Source: a phage
Reading direction: 5' to 3' (one strand)
Sequence record: PZ445524.1
DNA length: 64,000 nt
Of the stretch, positions 4,702 through 33,679 are shown in pieces (within the stretch, counting starts at the first letter, position 1; each line of letters starts with the position of its first letter). The notes below the pieces were generated by a model, which saw only the letters and a program-made list of their open reading frames with translations, did not search any database and was not told the origin of the DNA. The translations under genes were made by a program, and so were the position numbers.

Positions 4702-4920
4702 TCATTTTACACCATTCCAAATTGTTTCAACCACGGATTTTAAACCATTTTGATGAATATCAATTCCGACTACCGCCATCAAATAAATTCCAACTACAAC
4801 TGAACCTAAGGCAAAAATCAGCATGAAAATGAATAAAGCCGGAAAAATATTATCGAAAAACCATTCAATAAATGTAAAAGCACTGCGTTTACGCTTCATA
4901 TTTTCCTCACATAAATCCAA
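4702..4920 (-). CDS. small membrane protein (72 aa)
   Basis: ORF track; hydrophobic core. Confidence 0.5.
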   Translation of the reverse strand: MDLCEENMKRKRSAFTFIEWFFDNIFPALFIFMLIFALGSVVVGIYLMAVVGIDIHQNGLKSVVETIWNGVK

Positions 4921-5020
4921 AGTAAACGTTTAATACATCAATCATTAAAACGATTGGGAATATACTCAAAACTATTAGTATTATAACTACATTCCATATA
5001 GCTTTAATAATCTTTTTCAT
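4907..5020 (-). CDS. small membrane protein (37 aa)
   Basis: track ORF 4907..5116 runs through an early promoter; trimmed to ATG at 5020, which is preceded by GGAGG in the conserved leader. Confidence 0.45.
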   Translation of the reverse strand: MKKIIKAIWNVVIILIVLSIFPIVLMIDVLNVYFGFM

Positions 5021-21697: not shown

Positions 21698-22168
21698 CTA
21701 GCGATAAAAACCAAAATAACGATTAGCTTCAATAATCTTTCTTTCTTCTTCGGACATTCTCCAACGTAGTCCAACATCAAAATGAGCCCAGACCATCTTA
21801 ACAAATGCGTTTATATCTTTAATATCTTCAATAATGAATGTTTTACTTTTAAAAGGCTGACTCGCTAATTTAACTTTATCATCTTCAAACAGGTCAAAAA
21901 GACCATATTCATGAGCTCTTTTATAGCCTTTAATAGTTAAAGCTTCAGAAGAAGAAAACGGTGAATCAGTATCCTGCAAAATATCTTCAGTATGCTTTAT
22001 AATTAGAATAACATTTTCTGGATATTTTCTTTCTTTTATATCTTCAATTAAAAAATCCGGATTTTCTGCTAAAGGAATAATTAATGAGCATTTTTTACCA
22101 AGAGTATTTACTGATTTACCTTCTTTAGACATGAATTCTACTGAATAATGTTTTGCTACTTCAATCAT
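21698..22168 (-). CDS. hypothetical protein (156 aa)
   Basis: ORF track. Confidence 0.6.
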
Positions 22169-22321
22169 GTGATTTCCTTTTGCCTACTAATGGACCATCG
22201 GGAATTTTGTTTTCCTGGATATATTTCTCATTTTCTTCCATCATTTTACGACCAATTTTAAGAAGCAAATCCATTGCTTCATTTGCTTTAGCTTTAGCCT
22301 CTTCTAACGTCATATCTTTGT

Positions 22322-22525
22322 TCATGATTTATCCCCATAGATGTCTCTCATCAATTTAAGCGCTGAGCGCTCTAATTTCTTTTCTTTCTCAGCACTAATC
22401 ATTGATTTCATCCATTCTTCCGATTCGTTCTGCATTTCTTTATTTGCTTGTTCAACCCAACCATCATCAATATACATTGAGTTTGGTCTATTGAACCATT
22501 CAAGAATTTTCTTCAGAACTTTCAT
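22322..22525 (-). CDS. hypothetical protein (67 aa)
   Basis: ORF track. Confidence 0.5.
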
Positions 22526-22997
22526 TTGTTTTACCTAAAACAATAGTAGGATTATCATCAAATTCATGAATTTTGAGTAAATTTGGATTTAAACTATTCC
22601 ATACAGAAGAAATAAAGTATGATAAAGCATCTTCACTCACAATTATAAACTTATTTCCTTTATCTATTTTCCAGTCATATACTGAATCGTACGAATAAAA
22701 AGATAAAGGATTACCATTATATTGTTCTGCGCTAACATTAATGTATTCGGATTTAGTAAATGCTTCAATTGCTCTAAACGGACTATTTGGCACAGTTTCA
22801 ATAATTCCGATCTTTTTAAGTTTTATTTCAACATCTTCTGGAACTGGCATTGAAACGAAATTTTCTACGAGATACATAGGGTTACAATAACCCTTATCAA
22901 TCACTACGGCTACAGTAATTGGAACATCTTTAGCAAACGACATGCTATTACTGCTAATATACATTTCAAACAAAATCGCTTCCATAATTTTCCTCAA
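22500..22997 (-). CDS. hypothetical protein (165 aa)
   Basis: ORF track. Confidence 0.6.
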
Positions 22998-23326
22998 TCA
23001 CAAGATGTAGATGAACAACTAGAATCACAAGAACTTCCACATGAATCGCCCGTCCATACATGAACAGGAACATTAGTATCATATGAATCAGAACTAGACT
23101 GCGCATTAGATGATGTAGTAGGTGTTGACCAGCGCCGAGGATTTTTATAATATTCTTGGGCTTCTTCATAAGTCATAGTAACTGCTTCTACTGTTCCATC
23201 TCCCATATAAACATATTCAACTACAGTTAAAGGAAGGTAGTCATTTGAAATAGGAACTACACCTTCCCCAGGAGTCGTAGAGAAAAAATCCGTAAAGAAA
23301 CTTTTAAACCAATTAAAGATAAACAT
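22994..23326 (-). CDS. hypothetical protein with Ser/Cys-rich C-terminal tail (110 aa)
   Basis: ORF track; tail [18 protein letters not shown]. Confidence 0.6.
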
Positions 23327-23532
23327 TACAAAAAGCCTCTTTTGAATTCAACTTGTTTATCGCCATAATCATATCGAATCTCTGCATTAAATTCGACAGA
23401 ACCATCGGCGTACATCATAAATGAATGCACAACAACTTCTGTAGACCATGGTTGTAGTTCATATTTCTTCATTACATGCCGTGAAATGATAATATCTAAA
23501 TCTTCATTCGGTTTAATCCAACGATTTAACAT
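23326..23532 (-). CDS. hypothetical protein (68 aa)
   Basis: ORF track. Confidence 0.5.
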   Translation of the reverse strand: MLNRWIKPNEDLDIIISRHVMKKYELQPWSTEVVVHSFMMYADGSVEFNAEIRYDYGDKQVEFKRGFL

Positions 23533-23598
23533 AGCGCTCTCCTCTATAAGATAATTCTATTATACCATACTCATTTTGGAAAGTAAACCGTTTAAATG

Positions 23599-23622
23599 AA
23601 AAAAGGACTCCCGAAGGAGTCC
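23599..23622 (-). terminator. rho-independent terminator downstream of soc
   Basis: minus strand GGACUCC-UUCG-GGAGUCC followed by UUUUUU. Confidence 0.65.
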
Positions 23623-23630
23623 TTGAATTA

Positions 23631-23867
23631 TTAACCACCTATTTCTGTTGGCGTAAACATTGCAGCATTCTTAGTTTTCCAGTCAGCTGCATCAGAAACT
23701 ACAGTAGAATATGCCGCCTTTTCAGAAGGAAAGGTCTGATAATGAGAATCTGCAATACGATGCTCGTTAGAATAGATTTCAAATGGAACAGAAACTTCCA
23801 TACCTTTAACTTCTTTACCTTCACCTGCTGGATGAGTAAAGGTCTTTATATTAACGAAACCACCCAT
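23631..23867 (-). CDS. soc: small outer capsid protein Soc
   Basis: 78 aa; HYQTFPSEKAAYSTV block recalled from Soc; late promoter TATAAATA and AAGGAG SD upstream. Confidence 0.8.
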   Translation of the reverse strand: MGGFVNIKTFTHPAGEGKEVKGMEVSVPFEIYSNEHRIADSHYQTFPSEKAAYSTVVSDAADWKTKNAAMFTPTEIGG

Positions 23868-23898
23868 AATAAACTCCTTTATTGTTTAATTACAGGTG

Positions 23899-23906
23899 TA
23901 TTTATA
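23899..23906 (-). promoter_or_regulatory. late promoter TATAAATA (gp55-dependent) for soc
   Basis: exact TATAAATA on minus strand about 30 nt upstream of soc ATG; overlaps stop codon of the HNH gene. Confidence 0.7.
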
Positions 23907-24753
23907 AACCATTTTCAAATCTCTTTATCATGTTTATATAATTTTCGTCAGGATAACCTAGGCTAACTGCTAGCTTTCTAAAATTGACATATTTAGGTTT
24001 GTTGTTATTAATCCATAATTCTCTAAGCTCTTTTTCATAATTCCATTTAAGTTGATTTCTGCGTGCAATTTTGCTTAAAGTTTTTCCTTTAGCTTTTAAA
24101 GCTTTTTCAGATGACTGTTTTAATTTTTGAATATTTAAAACTTCTTCTATAGATAAATTATTTTCCTTTGAATATCTTATGCAAAAATCTTTTACTATGG
24201 CTATTAGGCAATTTTTGTGAGTACCTAAAATTTCTGGATTATTTTCTTCAACTAAAATTCCCCAATACCTTCGATAGCGAGGCATATCCCTTGAAATCCA
24301 GTCATTATACCAAAAATCAAAGTTGGAATACATGAAAGATTTTCTTTTACGAAGAGTATCTTGGTTTATCCATTGCTCACGTTTATCAGCCCATAACTTA
24401 ATAGTAAAGTCTTTCTCTAAGTCAGAAAGCTTCTTAAATTGTGAGCTATTTACTGAGGTCATTCTCTGGAATGCATTCAGCAATCCAAATCTTCCAGTTG
24501 AACATAAGAGATAGTGAACATATATGTGTTGATATATTGGGAGATATACTCTATTCCAAGGATATATTTTAAAATCACTATACTCAGGAAATGCACATTT
24601 AGGAAGTATATGATGGGCTTCTGTTTTAGATTTAATGTGAGTGTTTAACTTATACTTATCTATAATTTTTAAATACTCATCTAAAAGTTCCCATTGCGGG
24701 AACTTTTCTTTAAGAGCAGATTTGAAATTAATATCCATTATCTTGACGTTCAA
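23902..24753 (-). CDS. free-standing HNH homing endonuclease (283 aa)
   Basis: HNH-like motif EAHHILPKCAFPEY similar to MobA/MobD-type motifs; basic C-terminal region; between soc and 56. Confidence 0.7.
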   Translation of the reverse strand: MNVKIMDINFKSALKEKFPQWELLDEYLKIIDKYKLNTHIKSKTEAHHILPKCAFPEYSDFKIYPWNRVYLPIYQHIYVHYLLCSTGRFGLLNAFQRMTSVNSSQFKKLSDLEKDFTIKLWADKREQWINQDTLRKRKSFMYSNFDFWYNDWISRDMPRYRRYWGILVEENNPEILGTHKNCLIAIVKDFCIRYSKENNLSIEEVLNIQKLKQSSEKALKAKGKTLSKIARRNQLKWNYEKELRELWINNNKPKYVNFRKLAVSLGYPDENYINMIKRFENGL

Positions 24754-25246
24754 AATTATGTTTGTTCTTCAAATAATAAAGTTTAAAGATTTCTTCAGCC
24801 GACATTCCAAGAGCAATAAATTTATTCATGAAAAAGTGAAATTGGTCAATCAGTTCAAATTTAATTTCAAGCTGATCTTCGGGAGATAAATCTTGAATTT
24901 TCTTGGATTGCATTTCAGAATAACGTTTCTTCCAAGGTTTCCATACAGCAGAAGCTTCTTTTTCACCATTACTCATACCACCAAGAGAAGTATATAGCTC
25001 GCGAGTTTCGTCTGCGATATAATCGTCTTGGTTTCGCAGCCAAGCAAGAACTTCTCCTGCAGTTTCAAGTGAATCGGGATGACGATTTGTTTCTGGTTTA
25101 TCATTAGCCAAACGAATCTGTAAATGCCGCTGCATATCAAGCATAACCTGCAATGGGTCTTTTTCATCACCGAGAATATCCCAGTATTCATTTTGAGCTT
25201 TATCAACACCTTCGATCAAATGAGCACATTCATTAAAGTGAGCCAT
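24728..25246 (-). CDS. 56: dCTP pyrophosphatase (dCTPase)
   Basis: 172 aa from MAHFNECAHLIEG; MazG-like; track N-terminal extension rejected because it runs through the RBS of an opposite-strand gene. Confidence 0.85.
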   Translation of the reverse strand: MAHFNECAHLIEGVDKAQNEYWDILGDEKDPLQVMLDMQRHLQIRLANDKPETNRHPDSLETAGEVLAWLRNQDDYIADETRELYTSLGGMSNGEKEASAVWKPWKKRYSEMQSKKIQDLSPEDQLEIKFELIDQFHFFMNKFIALGMSAEEIFKLYYLKNKHNFERQDNGY

Positions 25247-25317
25247 TATTTTTCCTTTCAATTCATGGGTTAGTAGATTAATTATACAATAAATATATAA
25301 AGCAATAAGGAGGACAT

Positions 25318-25518
25318 ATGGTACAAAAATTAATGGCACTTGTTGATGCCATAAAAGGTAATAAGAAACGTATAGCTTTTACTATTTCTGCTATGGTAGG
25401 AATTTTACTCTGGAACTTTATTTTATCACCTGTTGCAATTGCACATGGTATTAATATTCCAGTAGTTACTCTTGATACATTCGTAGATTTAGCATTTGCT
25501 TTAGTTGGGTTAATTTAA
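25318..25518 (+). CDS. small hydrophobic protein (66 aa), plus strand
   Basis: perfect SD AAGGAGG at 25307-25313, 4 nt before ATG; intergenic between 56 and 61; two hydrophobic segments. Confidence 0.6.
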   Translation: MVQKLMALVDAIKGNKKRIAFTISAMVGILLWNFILSPVAIAHGINIPVVTLDTFVDLAFALVGLI

Positions 25519-26543
25519 ATCTTAGCATATTTAGATAGCCGCATTTTAGCCATCAACCCCTGGGCAATATTATTTTTCATATATTCCATAATTTGTTCAG
25601 GGGTTGCACCTTCCTTTCTAATCATATCATTAACATCTTTTGATTTCCAGGGAGATTTATCCCAAAACATAACCCTTTCTCCTGCATCAACTAATTTAGT
25701 CATCCGTTTAATAGTGTCAGGGTGACGAGGTTCATTATCTAAAACCCACACTCGTCTATCTTTAAATGGAACAACTTCTAGGTCTAATTGACCACCCGTA
25801 ATAGCTATACCATTTTCAATAAAAAGTGAATCTATAGGTCCTTCTAGAACATATACATCACCATCTTTAACTCGTTCGACTCCATAGATTTTTGTTGCTT
25901 CAGGATAAGCTTTGATGGTGATATATTTTTGAGGAGCATCTTTCTTTAATGCACGTCCTTGAAAAGACTCAGCTTTTCCATTAGCATTATAAATTGGAAT
26001 AACAAGACGAGGCTCAGAAATTTCCTTTTTATATGTTCCCGGTGCTATGCTATTAACCAATTTAGGCCATTCGGTTGTAAACCAAAGATATTTCCATTTA
26101 TCCTTTGGAATACAACGAGCTTTTACATATTTTATAATTGGATGGTCTTCCGCCAGTTTATCTAATCTAACACATGACGGAAGAGATTTAATTATTTTCT
26201 TCTCAGGTTGTTTAGGAAGTTCTTTAGGTTTTTCTACTGGACGACTTTTACCTTTTTCTTTTCTTATTTCAAAGATATACTCACGATATAAATCAGGTTC
26301 AAACTCCTTTAAATATATTCCGATTGGTGCATGATAGTTACAGTTATAACAATGAATATTTCCTTCATTATTATCACCATAATACCATCCACGGGCTTTA
26401 TTTTGGTCGGTTTTTGAATCTCCACACACTGGGCATCTAAACCGTAATTTAAAAGTTGAACTATTATTTACTTGTGTGAATTTAGGTAAATGAGCTAATG
26501 CACGGTATGCAAACTCATTATCAATCCAAGGTATTGATGACAT
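25515..26543 (-). CDS. 61: DNA primase
   Basis: 342 aa; N-terminal zinc ribbon CPVCGDS...CYNC; T4 gp61 length. Confidence 0.95.
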   Translation of the reverse strand: MSSIPWIDNEFAYRALAHLPKFTQVNNSSTFKLRFRCPVCGDSKTDQNKARGWYYGDNNEGNIHCYNCNYHAPIGIYLKEFEPDLYREYIFEIRKEKGKSRPVEKPKELPKQPEKKIIKSLPSCVRLDKLAEDHPIIKYVKARCIPKDKWKYLWFTTEWPKLVNSIAPGTYKKEISEPRLVIPIYNANGKAESFQGRALKKDAPQKYITIKAYPEATKIYGVERVKDGDVYVLEGPIDSLFIENGIAITGGQLDLEVVPFKDRRVWVLDNEPRHPDTIKRMTKLVDAGERVMFWDKSPWKSKDVNDMIRKEGATPEQIMEYMKNNIAQGLMAKMRLSKYAKI

Positions 26544-27338: not shown

Positions 27339-27631
27339 TATTCACCTACCACTTCAGCGATGATATTTTTATTATTAAAGTTTTTATCGCAATACAGAAC
27401 ATAATTATACTGCATTACACCACCAGACTTAAGCTGTTTTTGCACTTCAGCTTTCATTTCAGGACGATCGCGCTCAACGATATTCATAATATCTGCTTCA
27501 ATTTGAGTTTCAACCTCAGTCTGATCCGCAGTCATAGACCATTCGCACAAATCTTTATCATAACCTGCCATAGCAGGCTGAGCAGCACAAGAAGCTAAAG
27601 CAAAAATTGTAGCAAAGATAAATTTTTTCAT
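27338..27631 (-). CDS. sp: Spackle-like periplasmic protein (superinfection exclusion / lysozyme inhibitor)
   Basis: 97 aa with N-terminal signal peptide MKKFIFATIFALASCAAQPAMA; position between 61 and 41. Confidence 0.7.
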   Translation of the reverse strand: MKKFIFATIFALASCAAQPAMAGYDKDLCEWSMTADQTEVETQIEADIMNIVERDRPEMKAEVQKQLKSGGVMQYNYVLYCDKNFNNKNIIAEVVGE

Positions 27632-27691
27632 GATAATCTCCTCAGTAGTTTATGTTTATATAGTATCTCAATTTCCAACAAAAGTAAACAG

Positions 27692-27991
27692 TTATTTTAA
27701 AACTTCTGCATAATCACATGTTACAAACTGTTTCTCTAGCTTAACGATCTTACGAAAATACCTTTTACACTGACGAATCTGTCGCTTCGTAGGACGTACA
27801 GCAAACTTAATAAATTCCACTCGACCAAATGGAGGACTTTCTTCTGCTGGAATATCTAACACCAATTCCCACGTATCGGCAATAAGTGCTTTGAATTGCG
27901 TATTTTTCCTGACGCTATACGGAGTAGGTTTAAATAAAACAATATGCATATTATCCTCGGCAATCCACTTCACATACTTTCTTTTCATCAA
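27692..27991 (-). CDS. hypothetical protein (99 aa)
   Basis: ORF track. Confidence 0.55.
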   Translation of the reverse strand: MMKRKYVKWIAEDNMHIVLFKPTPYSVRKNTQFKALIADTWELVLDIPAEESPPFGRVEFIKFAVRPTKRQIRQCKRYFRKIVKLEKQFVTCDYAEVLK

Positions 27992-28191: not shown

Positions 28192-29619
28192 CTAAAATTT
28201 TAATTCATTTGCCAAAGCATCTAACTGGGCTCGAGTGGATTCATTTCTTTGATAGCGATTCTGCTCAGCCTGAATCTGTTGTGAACCTGCTACTTCGTTC
28301 ACTTCAGTTGGAGTAGAATCTTGTTCAATTTCTACCCATTTCTGATTTCCTTTTTGAACACCCATCAAAAACTTATTCCATTTGTTCTTATCGCCATATC
28401 GTGATTTGATTTGCTTAATGAGTTGTTGTTCAGCAGCTGCTAACTCCTCGGTTTCAATGACCGCAAGCATAAAATCGGCTGTTGCTGGAAGACCGGCAGA
28501 TTCTGCAATATCGCTCATGTTAACATCAGAAGAATCCCAAGCTTGTTTACCAACCTGTGCTGCAGTCCAAAGAACAGTTTCGGTTTCAACAGCAAGAGCA
28601 CGCAATTCCTCTGCAATAGCTTTAACAGTTGTGTAACTATTTTCTGAATAAACTCTAATGCGGCAAGATTTACAAATACCCAGATAGTCGACAATAATGA
28701 TTGTTGGAACAAAATTCTTCTTGAGCTTCAATTCGTTTAAAAGTGATCGAAATGTATTAGCATCTGCTCCACCGGTAGGATACTGTTTAACGATTAAACG
28801 ACCGAGAGTAGATTTCTCACGCCATTTTTCCATTTTTCCTTTATATTCAGCGTAAGAAATATGCCCATCATCAATGTCATCAAGAGAAACATCAAGCATA
28901 TTAGCATCAATACGCTTAGCACAGACTTCTTCTGCCATTTCCATGGAAATGTAAAGAACATTATGTCCGAGCTGCAAATAATCTGCTGCCAATGAACACA
29001 GACCTAATGACTTACCAACGTTAACGCCAGCCATTAAAACGTTCAGTGTTCCAGTCTCAGCTCCGCCTTTAGTAATTTTGTTTAGAATTCTGAGTTTAAA
29101 TGGAACCTTACGAGCTTTATTCATATAAGATAGCCAACGTGCTTCGTAGTCAGCCATCCAATCATGACCAACGTAGCTATCAAATGAAATTGATAATGCT
29201 TGGCGCATGATGTCAGGAATAGCACCAACATCCGGCATTTTCTTATTTCGTTTTTCCGGAGGAAGCTCAGCATTAGTTTGAATTTCGATTATTTTAGACG
29301 TAGCATTAAACATCGCCCTTTGCTGAACATATTTTTCTGTTTCTTTTACTAACCAGCTGTGGTCTTCCGGAGAATCAGCCAGTTTTGAAATAAGTGTTTT
29401 TACACCAGAATATTCTGTTTCAGTAAATGAACTATTTTCTAATGCAACATTTAACGCATTAATAGATGGAACGCTATGATACTCATTGACATGAGATTTA
29501 ATTAATTTGAATGTATTTTTAGCTGGACCACTTTCAAAATATTCTGAATCCATATATGGCCAAACTTTTGAAAAATAAGCTTGATCAAATATGAGATGAG
29601 AAAGAATAATTTCTACCAC
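28192..29619 (-). CDS. 41: replicative DNA helicase (DnaB-like)
   Basis: 475 aa; Walker A GVNVGKS; T4 gp41 length. Confidence 0.95.
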   Translation of the reverse strand: MVEIILSHLIFDQAYFSKVWPYMDSEYFESGPAKNTFKLIKSHVNEYHSVPSINALNVALENSSFTETEYSGVKTLISKLADSPEDHSWLVKETEKYVQQRAMFNATSKIIEIQTNAELPPEKRNKKMPDVGAIPDIMRQALSISFDSYVGHDWMADYEARWLSYMNKARKVPFKLRILNKITKGGAETGTLNVLMAGVNVGKSLGLCSLAADYLQLGHNVLYISMEMAEEVCAKRIDANMLDVSLDDIDDGHISYAEYKGKMEKWREKSTLGRLIVKQYPTGGADANTFRSLLNELKLKKNFVPTIIIVDYLGICKSCRIRVYSENSYTTVKAIAEELRALAVETETVLWTAAQVGKQAWDSSDVNMSDIAESAGLPATADFMLAVIETEELAAAEQQLIKQIKSRYGDKNKWNKFLMGVQKGNQKWVEIEQDSTPTEVNEVAGSQQIQAEQNRYQRNESTRAQLDALANELKF

Positions 29620-29628
29620 ACTTACTCC

Positions 29629-29991
29629 TTAAAAGAATTTAAATTTTTTCTTTGACCTTTTATTAAATGCATCTTGTAGTTGCATTGTAATACATTTTTC
29701 TACATGAGGAGCTAACTCAGCTTTTCTTTCTTGGTCAAGAACAGCAAAGTCCATTACAACCTTTCCATCAACCCAATCCAGTTTAGTTACATACACTATA
29801 TGTGTAGAACCATCTTCTAGTTTAATGACAATCTCCTGGATAACATTTTCCATAGCGGATTTAATTATCTTAAGAGACTCATTAAAAAGACGTTCTTTTC
29901 TTTCTTCTTCCCCCTCCGAAGAGGGGGATTCATCGATAATTTCTAGATCTAAATCTAAATCATCTTTATTCATTAAATTCTTCCATATCAC
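29629..29991 (-). CDS. 40: gp40 head vertex assembly chaperone (positional)
   Basis: 120 aa ORF between uvsX and 41, as gene 40 in T4. Confidence 0.6.
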   Translation of the reverse strand: MIWKNLMNKDDLDLDLEIIDESPSSEGEEERKERLFNESLKIIKSAMENVIQEIVIKLEDGSTHIVYVTKLDWVDGKVVMDFAVLDQERKAELAPHVEKCITMQLQDAFNKRSKKKFKFF

Positions 29992-31147
29992 TTAACTGTT
30001 CAAGGTCAGTTTCTAAATCAGCTGCTGATTTACTTTTACTTTCTGGAGATTTAAATTTTTCAACCTTTGAGTTAATCAATTCATCAACTTCAGCTTCAAC
30101 AATTTCATTACTATCAATAGCACCTAACTGATAAGCACGTTTAATAGCATCTCGGAATGGTTGATGCTTAAATAAAGGACCCCAGAATGTAGTACAGTTA
30201 GTATCTTTTGCACGCCAAGATTTTTCTTCGCGAATCATCTCGCCGGTTTCTTCGTCAAGAAATTCACGAGCATACCAGCCATTTTTTGGTTTTACTACAA
30301 ATCCTAATTCTAGAGCCATATCTAACAATCCAGAATAAGGATCGATACCACCGTCAAATTTAACATCAATAAAGAATTTACTTTTTTCTTTAACGGTACG
30401 AGATTTTTCTACATTTAGAACAAATTGATACCCCTGAAGATCAGAACCATCTTTAATCTGACGCTTACCGATAATGAATACAGTATCAGCCGAATACATT
30501 ACGCCTGTACCACCTGTCATCACGGTTTTACTAAACATTTCAATTGTTTCAATTGTATGGTTAACCGCAACACATGGAATATTTTTAATGCTAAAATAAG
30601 GAGTAACAATACGGAATAATGACTTCAGTGATTTAGCACGAGTCATATCTGCCACAGATTTTTCATTCAAGGCATCTTCCGTTTCTTTCTTAGAAGCCAT
30701 ATTACCGATTGAGTCGATGAATACAATAACCTTTTCACCACGCTCAATAGCTTCAAGCTGGTTCACCATATCAATTTTCAGCTGTTCAACTGACTGAATT
30801 GGCGTATGAATTACTCGTTCCGGGTCAACTCCCATGGATCGCAAATAAGCTGGAGTAATACCAAATTCGCTATCATAGAATAAACAAACCGCGTCAGGAT
30901 ATTTGTTCAAATACGCTGCAACCATAGTCAAAGACATATTTGATTTAAAGTGTTTAGAAGGCCCTGCGAAAATAGTTAAACCAGACTGCATACCGCCATC
31001 AATCGCACCAGAAATAGCAATATTAAGCATTGGGATTTTTGTGCGAATTACATCCTTTTCATTAAAGAATTTAGATGTAGTCAGTTCAGCAGTCATTTTA
31101 GAAGTGGAAGCTTTAATCAAACGGGATTTTAAATCTGCAATAGACAT
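29966..31147 (-). CDS. uvsX: UvsX recombinase (RecA-like)
   Basis: 393 aa; Walker A GPSKHFKS; RecA fold; T4 UvsX length. Confidence 0.95.
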   Translation of the reverse strand: MSIADLKSRLIKASTSKMTAELTTSKFFNEKDVIRTKIPMLNIAISGAIDGGMQSGLTIFAGPSKHFKSNMSLTMVAAYLNKYPDAVCLFYDSEFGITPAYLRSMGVDPERVIHTPIQSVEQLKIDMVNQLEAIERGEKVIVFIDSIGNMASKKETEDALNEKSVADMTRAKSLKSLFRIVTPYFSIKNIPCVAVNHTIETIEMFSKTVMTGGTGVMYSADTVFIIGKRQIKDGSDLQGYQFVLNVEKSRTVKEKSKFFIDVKFDGGIDPYSGLLDMALELGFVVKPKNGWYAREFLDEETGEMIREEKSWRAKDTNCTTFWGPLFKHQPFRDAIKRAYQLGAIDSNEIVEAEVDELINSKVEKFKSPESKSKSAADLETDLEQLSDMEEFNE

Positions 31148-31454
31148 TCATTTTTTCCATAGGCATCATTATATTTTTCTCGCGGTTTATAATAAAGGGT
31201 TTATACTTAGAGTTTAACTACATTAAAACTTATTTAAGATAGAATAATTTTATCACTCAATCTTTTAGCATTATCGCTTGAAGTCTCAGTTAACTGAGCA
31301 TTTGGCTATTCGATGAACTTCTCTCTTTTCTAATCAATATAACAAAAGAAGTCCCAAAAAGCAAACAGACCTAAACCGATAATAAGCAATAAAGGTCCTA
31401 ACATTTATTCCACCGGTTAAAGATAAATAACTTTCTAATAATAGTTCATAATTT

Positions 31455-32510
31455 TTATAAATCAATAGCTTTTTTGAACGCATCTTGCCATTCGGCTTTC
31501 TTTTCACGGGTTTTATTTAAAATATCATGTTGAATAGAAAGCATCTCTTTACGTAAAACATCACTGTGTTTTAACTCATTGACTCTATCAATGAGTTCAG
31601 CACGATTATTTACATAAAAACGAGCATCATTAATAATTCGATGTTTGGTATCAAATTCTTCGTCAATTAGCATCACTGCATCAGATGCCATTGTTTCCCA
31701 GACGCGTAAGGTAATAAAGTTGTCATTATAATTCTTGTCACCAATAATTAATGCAGCAATAGCTTGACTATTCTTTTCAGATACCATGTTCATAGGAATT
31801 TTTCCAGTGAACACCGGAGCTTTGGTCCAAGGATATTTAGGATTTTTAAACTGTTTTTCTCGTGCATTGCCAAAAAACTCAATATTTAAACCGGTGTCAA
31901 ATAAGAATTCTACCATCTTGGATTCGCGTTGACCGGACCGAAATGAACCGCCATAAATAACATCCAAAGTTTTCTTGGTAGGCTTAGATAATTGAAAATC
32001 GTTCATATGAATTTTATATTGTTCAATAGGAAAATATTCAAATTCAATAACATTATCAACTTTCTTATGCGCAGCCTTAGCAATGTCTAAATTTATACCT
32101 TGGGAAATCACTTTAATTGGTGATTTAATTAATAGCTCTTCTTCAGTGTACAAATATGCCCATGGTCTATTTTTAACATTTGGCCAAGACTGCGAAAACG
32201 GCAAACGTATATCTGTAAATAAATAATAAATTTTACTTTTGTATTTTGCCATAAATTTTTGCGCAGATAAAATTGCTAAATTAGGTTTACCACCAAAAAA
32301 GTTAATAGAAGAATTAACAACTATCAAACGGTCATAATCATTAACATCTACTTCATCAAAAGATTTAGTGTAAACACCATTTTTAAGAGAAATAATGTCG
32401 ACATTAAGACCCATTTCAGAAATAACTTTAAAAAGATAAATAGTTTCAGAAGATGGAACAGTTTTAAAATTAATAACATTATTACCCATATTAATTATAG
32501 CAATTTTCAT
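31455..32510 (-). CDS. bgt: DNA beta-glucosyltransferase
   Basis: 351 aa; sequence recognised as T4 beta-gt (MKIAIINMGNNVINFKTV...). Confidence 0.9.
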   Translation of the reverse strand: MKIAIINMGNNVINFKTVPSSETIYLFKVISEMGLNVDIISLKNGVYTKSFDEVDVNDYDRLIVVNSSINFFGGKPNLAILSAQKFMAKYKSKIYYLFTDIRLPFSQSWPNVKNRPWAYLYTEEELLIKSPIKVISQGINLDIAKAAHKKVDNVIEFEYFPIEQYKIHMNDFQLSKPTKKTLDVIYGGSFRSGQRESKMVEFLFDTGLNIEFFGNAREKQFKNPKYPWTKAPVFTGKIPMNMVSEKNSQAIAALIIGDKNYNDNFITLRVWETMASDAVMLIDEEFDTKHRIINDARFYVNNRAELIDRVNELKHSDVLRKEMLSIQHDILNKTREKKAEWQDAFKKAIDL

Positions 32511-32533
32511 ATTATTCCTTTTATGTTAAACGA

Positions 32534-33274
32534 TTAAGCGTATTTTCCTACATAATCTTTTTTCGAAATATGTGTTTCGCCAGTATTCCACCAATGATCA
32601 ACCAAGTAAAAATGACGAGAATACACATGTAGGCTTCCAACATTCCATATAATGGAACCTGCTTTATACTGGCGAGTTGAATCACCTGCATTCAAATCAG
32701 ATACTAATTTATCTAATACGTATTTTTGCCATGCATAATCATTACGGAATCCGAAGACCACGTCATTTGAGCGCATGTTAACAACCGCATTGATTTTCTT
32801 GTCACGAATCAGGTATTGTACTGTATTCGTGCACATAAAATCTGACATACCATCTTTATTATAGTCAAACTGCATAGATGGACGAGTATAAATCATGATA
32901 CCACGTCGAGAATCAGGATTTTGACCAAGTTCAGCTAAACACATATCATACTGGGCATAGTTATCTTCTGACCAAATAGCCCAACCATAATTCGAGTTAA
33001 TTTCGCCTTTAGAAGATGCTACTTGTTGCCAAATCTTCGGTGTTTCACCCGGAATATCTTTAACGAACAAGCTCTTAGATTTATACCATTCAAGTTCACG
33101 CTGAATGTATTCATCATTAAGAGCGCCAAAAATAAACGGTTCATCTGCTACAAATGATGCGCCAATAATTTCAATAGTTTTAACACCAGTTTTATCAACT
33201 ACGAAATCTTTTTCTTTTAATGCAAGCCCCAAATGAAGACGGATTTCTTCAACTGTCATAGAGTCACTAATCAT
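32534..33274 (-). CDS. 42: dCMP hydroxymethylase
   Basis: 246 aa; thymidylate-synthase-like fold; T4 gp42 length. Confidence 0.9.
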   Translation of the reverse strand: MISDSMTVEEIRLHLGLALKEKDFVVDKTGVKTIEIIGASFVADEPFIFGALNDEYIQRELEWYKSKSLFVKDIPGETPKIWQQVASSKGEINSNYGWAIWSEDNYAQYDMCLAELGQNPDSRRGIMIYTRPSMQFDYNKDGMSDFMCTNTVQYLIRDKKINAVVNMRSNDVVFGFRNDYAWQKYVLDKLVSDLNAGDSTRQYKAGSIIWNVGSLHVYSRHFYLVDHWWNTGETHISKKDYVGKYA

Positions 33275-33427
33275 TTAAACCTCAATTGATACATTCATAT
33301 TTAACTTGTAACAGTAATAAACCCCAACCTAAAATAATAGTTGGAATCATAAGAGGAACCGTTACACTATAGTATATACTTATTATAACCATCAAGATTA
33401 AAAGCAATGCTGCTATAATTTTGCTTT

Positions 33428-33679
33428 TCATTCCTTCTCTCTGATGATAATTACCTGATTTGGCTGTGCAGACTTTTTAGTTTCACCGGCAATTGACCAA
33501 ATAAATGTAATAAACCAACCAATAATTGACCAGTTAAACAGTAAAGATGTGAAAAAGATTCCTACTGTCGATTTTGACCCACGCATCAAGGCAATGAACC
33601 ATGGAAGCATGTATATAATAATAGCCAACACGCCTGAAACTAAAACCATAAAAATTGAACCTGCTACTAAAGTTTCCAT
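33428..33679 (-). CDS. imm: Imm superinfection immunity membrane protein
   Basis: 83 aa, two TM helices; between 42 and 43. Confidence 0.8.
   Translation of the reverse strand: METLVAGSIFMVLVSGVLAIIIYMLPWFIALMRGSKSTVGIFFTSLLFNWSIIGWFITFIWSIAGETKKSAQPNQVIIIREKE

Follow-up and report, generated by a model that had tools for sequence, protein, structure and literature searches.

The window, by which we mean the whole 64,000-nucleotide stretch of phage DNA analysed here (sequence record PZ445524.1), comes from a T4-like (Tequatrovirus) genome and has its genes on the minus strand. The list of open reading frames (ORFs) gives the gene order 41 (28192-29619), 40, uvsX, spacer, b-gt, 42, imm and 43. 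The recombinase gene uvsX (29966..31147, minus strand, 393 aa) lies downstream of the spacer and is 89.9% identical overall to T4 uvsX. At the protein level, residues 236-393 of UvsX are 100% identical to the T4 protein and residues 1-235 are 80-91% identical. On the other side lies b-gt (31455..32510, minus strand), which encodes a beta-glucosyltransferase of 351 aa, 99.7% identical to that of T4. The spacer between the two genes spans 307 bp (31148-31454), the extent given for it in the initial annotation of this DNA.

In T4, the corresponding junction is occupied by segA, the gene of a free-standing GIY-YIG homing endonuclease. The initial annotation gave this arrangement for T4, and the NC_000866 record agrees with it, placing uvsX at 22386-23561, segA at 23570-24235 (666 bp) and b-gt at 24400-25455. 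The possibility that T4 has an equally short spacer at this position was checked, and T4 has segA there. Alignment of the two genomes, which the annotation had proposed, recovers the same flanking genes in the same order and orientation, with segA in T4 only. Two blastn blocks define the junction: T4 24250-25545 corresponds to window 31305-32600 with 99.7% identity, and T4 22020-23555 corresponds to window 29600-31135 with 89.9% identity. The breakpoints, window 31135/31305 and T4 23555/24250, mark discrete cassette boundaries. When identity to T4 is followed in a sliding window over 26-37 kb, it stays at 96-100% outside the 5′ tract of uvsX and one exceptional bin (92.5% at 27600-27800).

Between these breakpoints, the window has 169 bp (31136..31304) where T4 has 694 bp, which comprise segA with its embedded promoter PuvsX and a few flanking bases. 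The 169-bp segment is homologous to segA-less relatives. The adjoining 150 bp next to b-gt (31305-31454) are identical to the segA/b-gt spacer of T4. T4 therefore has exactly the same micro-ORF as the window, and the counterpart of the segA cassette is confined to 31136-31304. The T4 locus thus shares with the window the flanking genes and their order, b-gt and the adjoining 150 bp (99.7-100% identical), the promoter motif of PsegA and the micro-ORF. It differs in that the window lacks both segA and the embedded PuvsX and carries instead 157 bp of putatively native uvsX upstream sequence, together with the common allele of the first 700 nt of uvsX rather than the divergent allele of T4.

The absence of segA, as first reported in the initial annotation, was confirmed, as the site holds no segA ORF. 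Searches of the window for a segA remnant, by tblastn with the SegA protein and by blastn with the T4 cassette DNA, returned only short chance-level matches in the spacer. Among 50,697 phage records searched, segA (at least 90% amino-acid identity) occurs in only 27, and the whole spacer of the window occurs in only 10, at about 95-96% identity. It is textbook knowledge that T-even phages vary in their homing-endonuclease content, and the lack of segA in the window is an ordinary, known kind of variation; the small number of segA-bearing records supports the annotation's suggestion that the absence fits this pattern. The phage is a very close relative of T4, and its spacer most likely represents the segA-free, or empty-site, allele of the junction between uvsX and b-gt.

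A separate observation concerns the position that segF occupies in T4, between soc and 56. There, window 23906-24728 does not align with T4, and tblastn detects a weak resemblance (E = 3e-6) between 23917..24063 (minus strand) and the SegA C-terminal domain. This suggests that the window may carry a different free-standing endonuclease at the segF position.

Promoters and the region upstream of uvsX

The spacer can be viewed as two parts of different character. The uvsX-proximal 157 bp (31148-31304) would represent the native upstream region of uvsX, with a TATAAT/ribosome-binding block and a candidate MotA-type promoter. The b-gt-proximal 150 bp would be read by transcripts arriving from upstream and by those from a resident equivalent of PsegA.

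Just upstream of the uvsX ATG lies the 30-nt block GAGnAAAATATAATGnTGCnTATGGAAAAA (31181..31152, minus strand), which contains a perfect TATAAT (31173..31168) and the ribosome-binding region. The block is invariant in the window, PTE-Eco15, KMB26, PP01 and Mizar, although the uvsX of Mizar is only about 71% identical. T4 lacks it, and there the 3′ end of segA abuts uvsX and supplies a different ribosome-binding site. The block putatively serves as a promoter and ribosome-binding element of uvsX.

Middle promoters were recognized by two elements 11-13 bp apart, a MotA box resembling (a/t)(a/t)(a/t)TGCTT(t/c)A and, downstream of it, a -10 element of the form TAnnnT. A candidate native middle-type promoter for uvsX is found at 31272..31247 (minus strand), where AATGCTAAA (31272..31264) is followed after 11 bp by TAAAAT (31252..31247). 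The box has the GCT core and the correct spacing, but departs twice from the TGCTT(t/c)A consensus. The arrangement is conserved in KMB26 as AATGCTAAA-11-TATAAT. A generic sigma-70 scan gave nothing above shuffled sequences.

The mapped middle promoters of T4 provide a reference for this region. Transcription start sites have been placed at 23752 for PuvsX and at 24460 for PsegA (PMC2988021, Table 1). In T4 coordinates, the PuvsX start falls inside segA and the PsegA start falls within the 3′ end of b-gt. The PuvsX sequence of T4 reads TTTGCTTAA...TATAAT. Applying the T4 offset of +7055, the PsegA equivalent of the window (31515..31545, minus strand) consists of GATGCTTTC (31545..31537), a gap of 12 bp and TATTTT (31524..31519), with a predicted start near 31515. 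It has the MotA box and -10 element of a middle promoter and is identical to the mapped promoter motif of T4. The motif is invariant in T4, the window, PTE-Eco15, Pu-Krd-SF5 and HMD-9, with or without segA.

This conservation bears on the history of the two promoters. Since the PsegA motif is unchanged in all segA-less b-gt phages examined, it would be a resident promoter older than segA. PuvsX, on the same comparison, appears to be cassette-borne. This agrees with a general statement in PMC2988022, according to which native promoters were displaced by endonuclease insertions that bring embedded replacements with them. In the phage studied here, the PsegA equivalent would read through the micro-ORF towards uvsX.

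Edges of the T4 cassette and the 5′ tract of uvsX

The target of SegA is reported to lie inside uvsX, where the cut leaves a 2-nt 3′ extension (PMC2988022). A remnant of the SegA recognition site, which the initial annotation had suggested looking for, would therefore be expected in the 5′ region of uvsX and not in the spacer. The first ~700 nt of uvsX in the window (30448..31147, minus strand) are the common Tequatrovirus allele found in segA-less phages and are presumed to contain the SegA target region.

Relative to T4, this tract (about window 30400-31135) is 74-88% identical and is the sole sharply divergent tract across 26-37 kb. The outlier is T4, which is 74-85% identical to the window, PTE-Eco15, PP01 and KMB26 in the uvsX 5′ tract. 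From uvsX nt 150 on, these four phages are mutually 87-99% identical; in the first 150 nt, KMB26 falls to 83%. The divergent tract of T4 is shared, at 94-100% identity, with PD112 and 215Ecol030PP, two segA-bearing phages that have beta-alpha-gt in place of b-gt.

A search with the T4 uvsX 5′ tract joined to the 3′ part of segA addressed the linkage between them. Phage records with the T4-type uvsX tract number 29, and 27 of these also have segA; the other uvsX-only matches are at most 80% identical. The tract occurs without segA only in Salmonella phage SG1 (two records). In SG1 (L019, 725-1990), the divergent uvsX 5′ tract of T4 (99.7% identity) is combined with a PP01-type 77-bp spacer and no segA. 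SG1 is an endonuclease-free carrier of the segA-linked allele, and the linkage of tract and endonuclease is not absolute. As segA and the divergent tract are linked and SegA is reported to cut uvsX, the linkage is such as co-conversion during homing would produce.

Two further observations concern uvsX in other phages. In KMB26 (L003, 3120-4295), the first ~450 nt of uvsX form a third allele, 83-88% identical to the window type and 73-79% identical to T4, and the gene is about 98% identical beyond ~450 nt. The 5′ end of uvsX is thus a general mosaic hot spot and not a peculiarity of T4 alone. In Shewanella phage Thanatos-1 (L017, 685-3085), a SegA homologue with 51% identity lies between two ORFs annotated as 'recombination protein'. 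This endonuclease appears to split uvsX, as would be expected if endonucleases of its lineage target that gene.

The other edge of the T4 cassette lies on the b-gt side. T4 matches the window down to T4 24250, and from T4 24262 on it matches 215Ecol030PP, with 99.2% identity over 1913 nt. The transition occurs in a 13-nt patch, TTCATCGAATAGC (31305..31317, minus strand), which we take as the recombination joint at which T4 switches from window-like sequence to that of a segA-bearing beta-alpha-gt-type phage. In T4, the 17 nt before the segA ATG (AGCAGTTGATTAATGAC) represent the final codons of beta-alpha-gt with their stop, as found in PD112 and in PP01, which is segA-less. T4 itself has no beta-alpha-gt gene, although this 3′ end is kept just upstream of segA. 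In PD112 and 215Ecol030PP (L015/L016, 1596-2275), segA follows the stop of beta-alpha-gt by 4 nt and precedes uvsX by 8 nt, so that one and the same cassette is found in two different upstream contexts.

The part of the spacer downstream of the micro-ORF was compared with the 3′ end of beta-alpha-gt (RKEKSEAFH...IAVD* against EKREFHRIAKRPVN*) as a possible relic of that gene, which the two sequences suggest on visual inspection. The local alignment scored 25, against 20.8 +/- 4.0 in shuffled sequences, and 153 of 1000 shuffles did as well. The longer relic was rejected as unsupported, and the claim is limited to the 13-nt joint patch.

These features suggest the following origin for the T4 arrangement. 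The recipient would have been a window-like b-gt phage and the donor a segA-bearing beta-alpha-gt-type phage. In the T4 lineage, the native uvsX upstream part and the first ~700 nt of uvsX would have been overwritten by a donor segment carrying segA, the internal PuvsX promoter and the divergent uvsX 5′ tract. The event would have been resolved at the 13-nt patch (31305-31317) on one side and inside uvsX on the other. The joint on the b-gt side may be this short because no longer homology was available there. Such a pattern would be expected of double-strand-break repair after SegA cuts uvsX, that is, of intronless homing with co-conversion. An empty-site spacer in the window and an overwriting of the T4 lineage by a copied segA segment is, with high probability, the best explanation of the locus.

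The direction of this event is open to another reading. The window lineage could have carried segA and the T4-type uvsX tract and lost both through recombination with a segA-less b-gt-type phage. The b-gt side of the junction is 99.7% T4-like and the uvsX 5′ side resembles PTE-Eco15 and PP01 (96-99%), as such an exchange could leave them, and SG1 demonstrates that tract and segA are separable by recombination. Against this, the window follows T4 and not the SF5/PTE type at all informative sites down to 31318, which would confine a loss crossover to the 13 nt of the joint patch. Moreover, the 3′ end of beta-alpha-gt kept before T4 segA identifies T4 as the recombinant state, which a loss in the window lineage leaves unexplained, and the search for a segA remnant in the window found none. 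A secondary loss is accordingly considered improbable. Gain of the segA segment by the T4 lineage is the direction we prefer; the window most likely preserves an uninvaded segA site, and on the simplest reading it is the best view available of what the T4 locus looked like before it was invaded.

The proposed event resembles the intronless homing of SegE, SegF, SegG and MobE of T4. As in those systems, the endonuclease gene lies between conserved genes and its reported target is in a neighbouring gene; a divergent tract flanks segA and shows tight linkage with it, and close relatives carry an endonuclease-free allele. It differs in that the linkage of segA is comparative only and in that one T4 end is resolved in a 13-nt patch and not in extended homology. 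The segA-less Tequatroviruses of the beta-alpha-gt type (PP01, T2/T6 type) have the uvsX 5′ allele and the TATAAT/ribosome-binding block of the window and no segA; unlike the window, they have neither b-gt nor the micro-ORF, and a spacer of 77 bp directly follows their beta-alpha-gt.

With near-T4 sequence on one side of the site and the common allele on the opposite side, the window locates the boundaries of the T4 segA cassette to within 13 nt. It also points to a beta-alpha-gt-type phage as the origin of that cassette, which would have come with about 700 nt of foreign uvsX. This constitutes comparative evidence for SegA homing with co-conversion, a process shown before for SegE, SegF and SegG. 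The accessible literature yielded no report of SegA homing with co-conversion or in mixed infection.

The micro-ORF and the palindrome of the spacer

The b-gt-proximal 150 bp contain the micro-ORF MLGPLLLIIGLGLFAFWDFFCYID (31330..31404, minus strand, 24 aa), which appears in the ORF list. A Shine-Dalgarno (SD)-like motif, GGTGGA (31414..31409, minus strand), lies 4 nt upstream of its ATG (31404). The hydrophobic 24-codon ORF and its SD are thus present in the spacer as the initial annotation described them. The annotation also summarized the spacer as having no segA, only the micro-ORF and a palindrome. This is correct, but the micro-ORF does not replace segA, as T4 has both genes: the T4 copy is identical and lies, unannotated, at NC_000866 24275-24349, between segA and b-gt.

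Taken alone, the micro-ORF is statistically within chance. Its hydropathy ranks 13th among the 304 ATG ORFs of 20-45 aa in the window, four of which are at least as hydrophobic and have an SD-like motif. Mean Kyte-Doolittle hydropathy over the 24 aa is 1.74, and the peptide is long enough to span a membrane. The long alleles found in relatives reach 1.9-2.6 on the same scale in 19-residue windows.

Comparison among relatives reveals several forms of this ORF. The 24-aa allele MLGPLLLIIGLGLFAFWDFFCYID is common to the window and T4. PTE-Eco15 has an annotated allele of 38 aa (MLGPLLLIIGLGLFAFWDFLLCWLEKREFHRIAKRPVN) and Pu-Krd-SF5 one of 37 aa (MLGPLLLIIGLGLFAFLGLFVMLVRKERISSNSQTPS). In 236Ecol005PP and HMD-9, a 2-bp deletion shifts the frame after codon 7 and leaves 23 aa. 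Finally, 12 phages of the KMB26/G2540 type, most of which have the ORF annotated, carry an allele of 37 aa (MLGPLLFITGLGIFTAVSLAGLYLYDLYESKKSKSKC). The frame has not been kept intact, as four reading-frame states occur among ~40 closely related genomes.

The KMB26/G2540-type phages represent a single divergent lineage, and their b-gt homologue is only 55% identical. The KMB26 micro-ORF homologue keeps 11 of the first 14 residues of the window form, while the C-terminal halves are unrelated. Six of these first 14 codons differ between the two, and three of the six changes are synonymous only. The SD of the KMB26 homologue is GAGG, unlike the GGTGGA of the window. The Pu-Krd-SF5 and KMB26 forms have a common architecture, in which a hydrophobic helix of ~24 residues is followed by a charged tail.

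Translating every allele in three frames locates the difference between the short and long forms. In the window, the segment 31290..31364 (minus strand) is displaced by a T-run of five versus six residues (31360..31356) and a 2-nt indel near 31349. By virtue of this displacement, the 24-aa ORF looks like a frameshift-truncated allele. It is most likely a truncated member of a family of single-pass membrane ORFs of ~37-38 aa located directly after b-gt.

Small single-pass membrane proteins of 20-50 aa include KdpF, MgtS and AcrZ as well as the type I toxins TisB and Ibs, and intergenic ORFs for small proteins that are led by an SD are typically missed by annotation. The micro-ORF resembles these proteins in size and in its one hydrophobic helix, followed in the long alleles by a short charged tail. 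It differs from KdpF, MgtS, AcrZ, TisB and Ibs in that it shares no sequence similarity with them and its frame is unstable among relatives.

Searches beyond the close relatives were negative. With the 24-aa peptide as query, tblastn of phage genomes gave no match, probably owing to the low-complexity filter. No PHROGs family matched the micro-ORF, and degenerate back-translated patterns together with a 17-nt exact scan of IMG/VR and JGI metagenomes gave only chance matches in unrelated sequence. Homologues were not found in b-gt phages of other genera (PS2, CC31), the peptide was not found in a literature search, and its exact sequence is absent from the protein collection searched. For the leader as RNA, Rfam at a permissive threshold returned only sub-threshold noise, and the fold of the whole leader showed no extra stability over shuffled sequences (z = -0.67). 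A 43-aa ORF annotated over the spacer in FL12 was considered as a form of the micro-ORF and rejected, being in a different frame and overlapping the end of b-gt. This PHANOTATE prediction (L018, 1530..1661, minus strand) corresponds to a 57-aa GTG ORF of the window at 31334..31507 and is probably spurious.

Whether the family is translated is finely balanced. The micro-ORF may equally well be a chance open frame in an untranslated leader, with the shared N-terminus reflecting recent ancestry or a conserved RNA or DNA element. ORFs of this size are indeed common in the window, the frame states vary among close relatives down to the codon-7 frameshift of 236Ecol005PP and HMD-9, and the ORF is unannotated in T4 and has neither a PHROG nor a wider homologue. 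Set against a chance frame are its intergenic position and the presence of an SD in both divergent versions even though the SD sequences differ. The 37-aa forms of Pu-Krd-SF5 and KMB26, with their same helix-then-tail architecture, also argue for a coding sequence, as does the synonymous half of the codon changes near the N-terminus. Nor does a conserved RNA element find support in an Rfam match or in an unusual fold. On this evidence, we judge the family about as likely as not to encode a real protein, and the 24-aa allele less likely than that to be functional.

If the family is indeed coding, the T4 micro-ORF may be the remnant of a membrane micro-protein or a minimal form of one. Even in T4, the best-annotated phage, a micro-protein gene between segA and b-gt may have escaped annotation. 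A broader proposal combines this with the history of the locus. T4 and its b-gt relatives would encode an unannotated single-pass membrane micro-protein after b-gt, of ~37 aa when intact and 24 aa in T4 and the window, that is expressed from PsegA; the window would show the state before invasion, and PsegA, older than segA, would originally have served both the ORF and uvsX. We put this combined proposal forward only tentatively and consider it rather doubtful as a whole.

The palindrome noted in the initial annotation is likewise present in the spacer, as a perfect 14-bp sequence, CTCAGTTAACTGAG, at 31285-31298. It lies 6 bp from the T4 homology breakpoint and could be imagined to form a hairpin that acts between b-gt and uvsX in termination or processing, or to be the recognition site of an endonuclease. 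Its frequency is nevertheless that of chance: the window contains 12 perfect 14-bp palindromes against 7.6 +/- 2.8 in shuffled sequences, and 5% of shuffled spacers contain one. A terminator scan found none, and the palindrome is not followed by a T-run. It is present with one mismatch in the closest segA-less relatives, PTE-Eco15, Pu-Krd-SF5, 236Ecol005PP and HMD-9, which have the same spacer; KMB26 and T4 lack it. In addition, the SegA target is reported to be in uvsX (PMC2988022), and the leader fold (z-score above) shows no added stability. The palindrome also contains the stop codons (TAA, TGA) of two of the long small-ORF alleles. A functional role is thus very unlikely, and we regard the palindrome as a product of chance without evident role.

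Two other small hydrophobic ORFs were noted in the window. The gap between gene 42 and imm is filled by an ORF of 49 aa, MKSKIIAALLLILMVIISIYYSVTVPLMIPTIILGWGLLLLQVKYECIN (33282..33431, minus strand). T4 has this ORF with two residue changes (L001, 4978..5127; NC_000866, about 26227-26376), where it is missing from the annotation consulted, and PTE-Eco15 annotates it as hypothetical. T4 may thus carry another unannotated micro-protein gene, of 49 aa, between 42 and imm. The census of ORF hydropathy also brought out a strongly hydrophobic ORF of 37 aa, MKKIIKAIWNVVIILIVLSIFPIVLMIDVLNVYFGFM, with an SD-like motif at 4907..5020 (minus strand).
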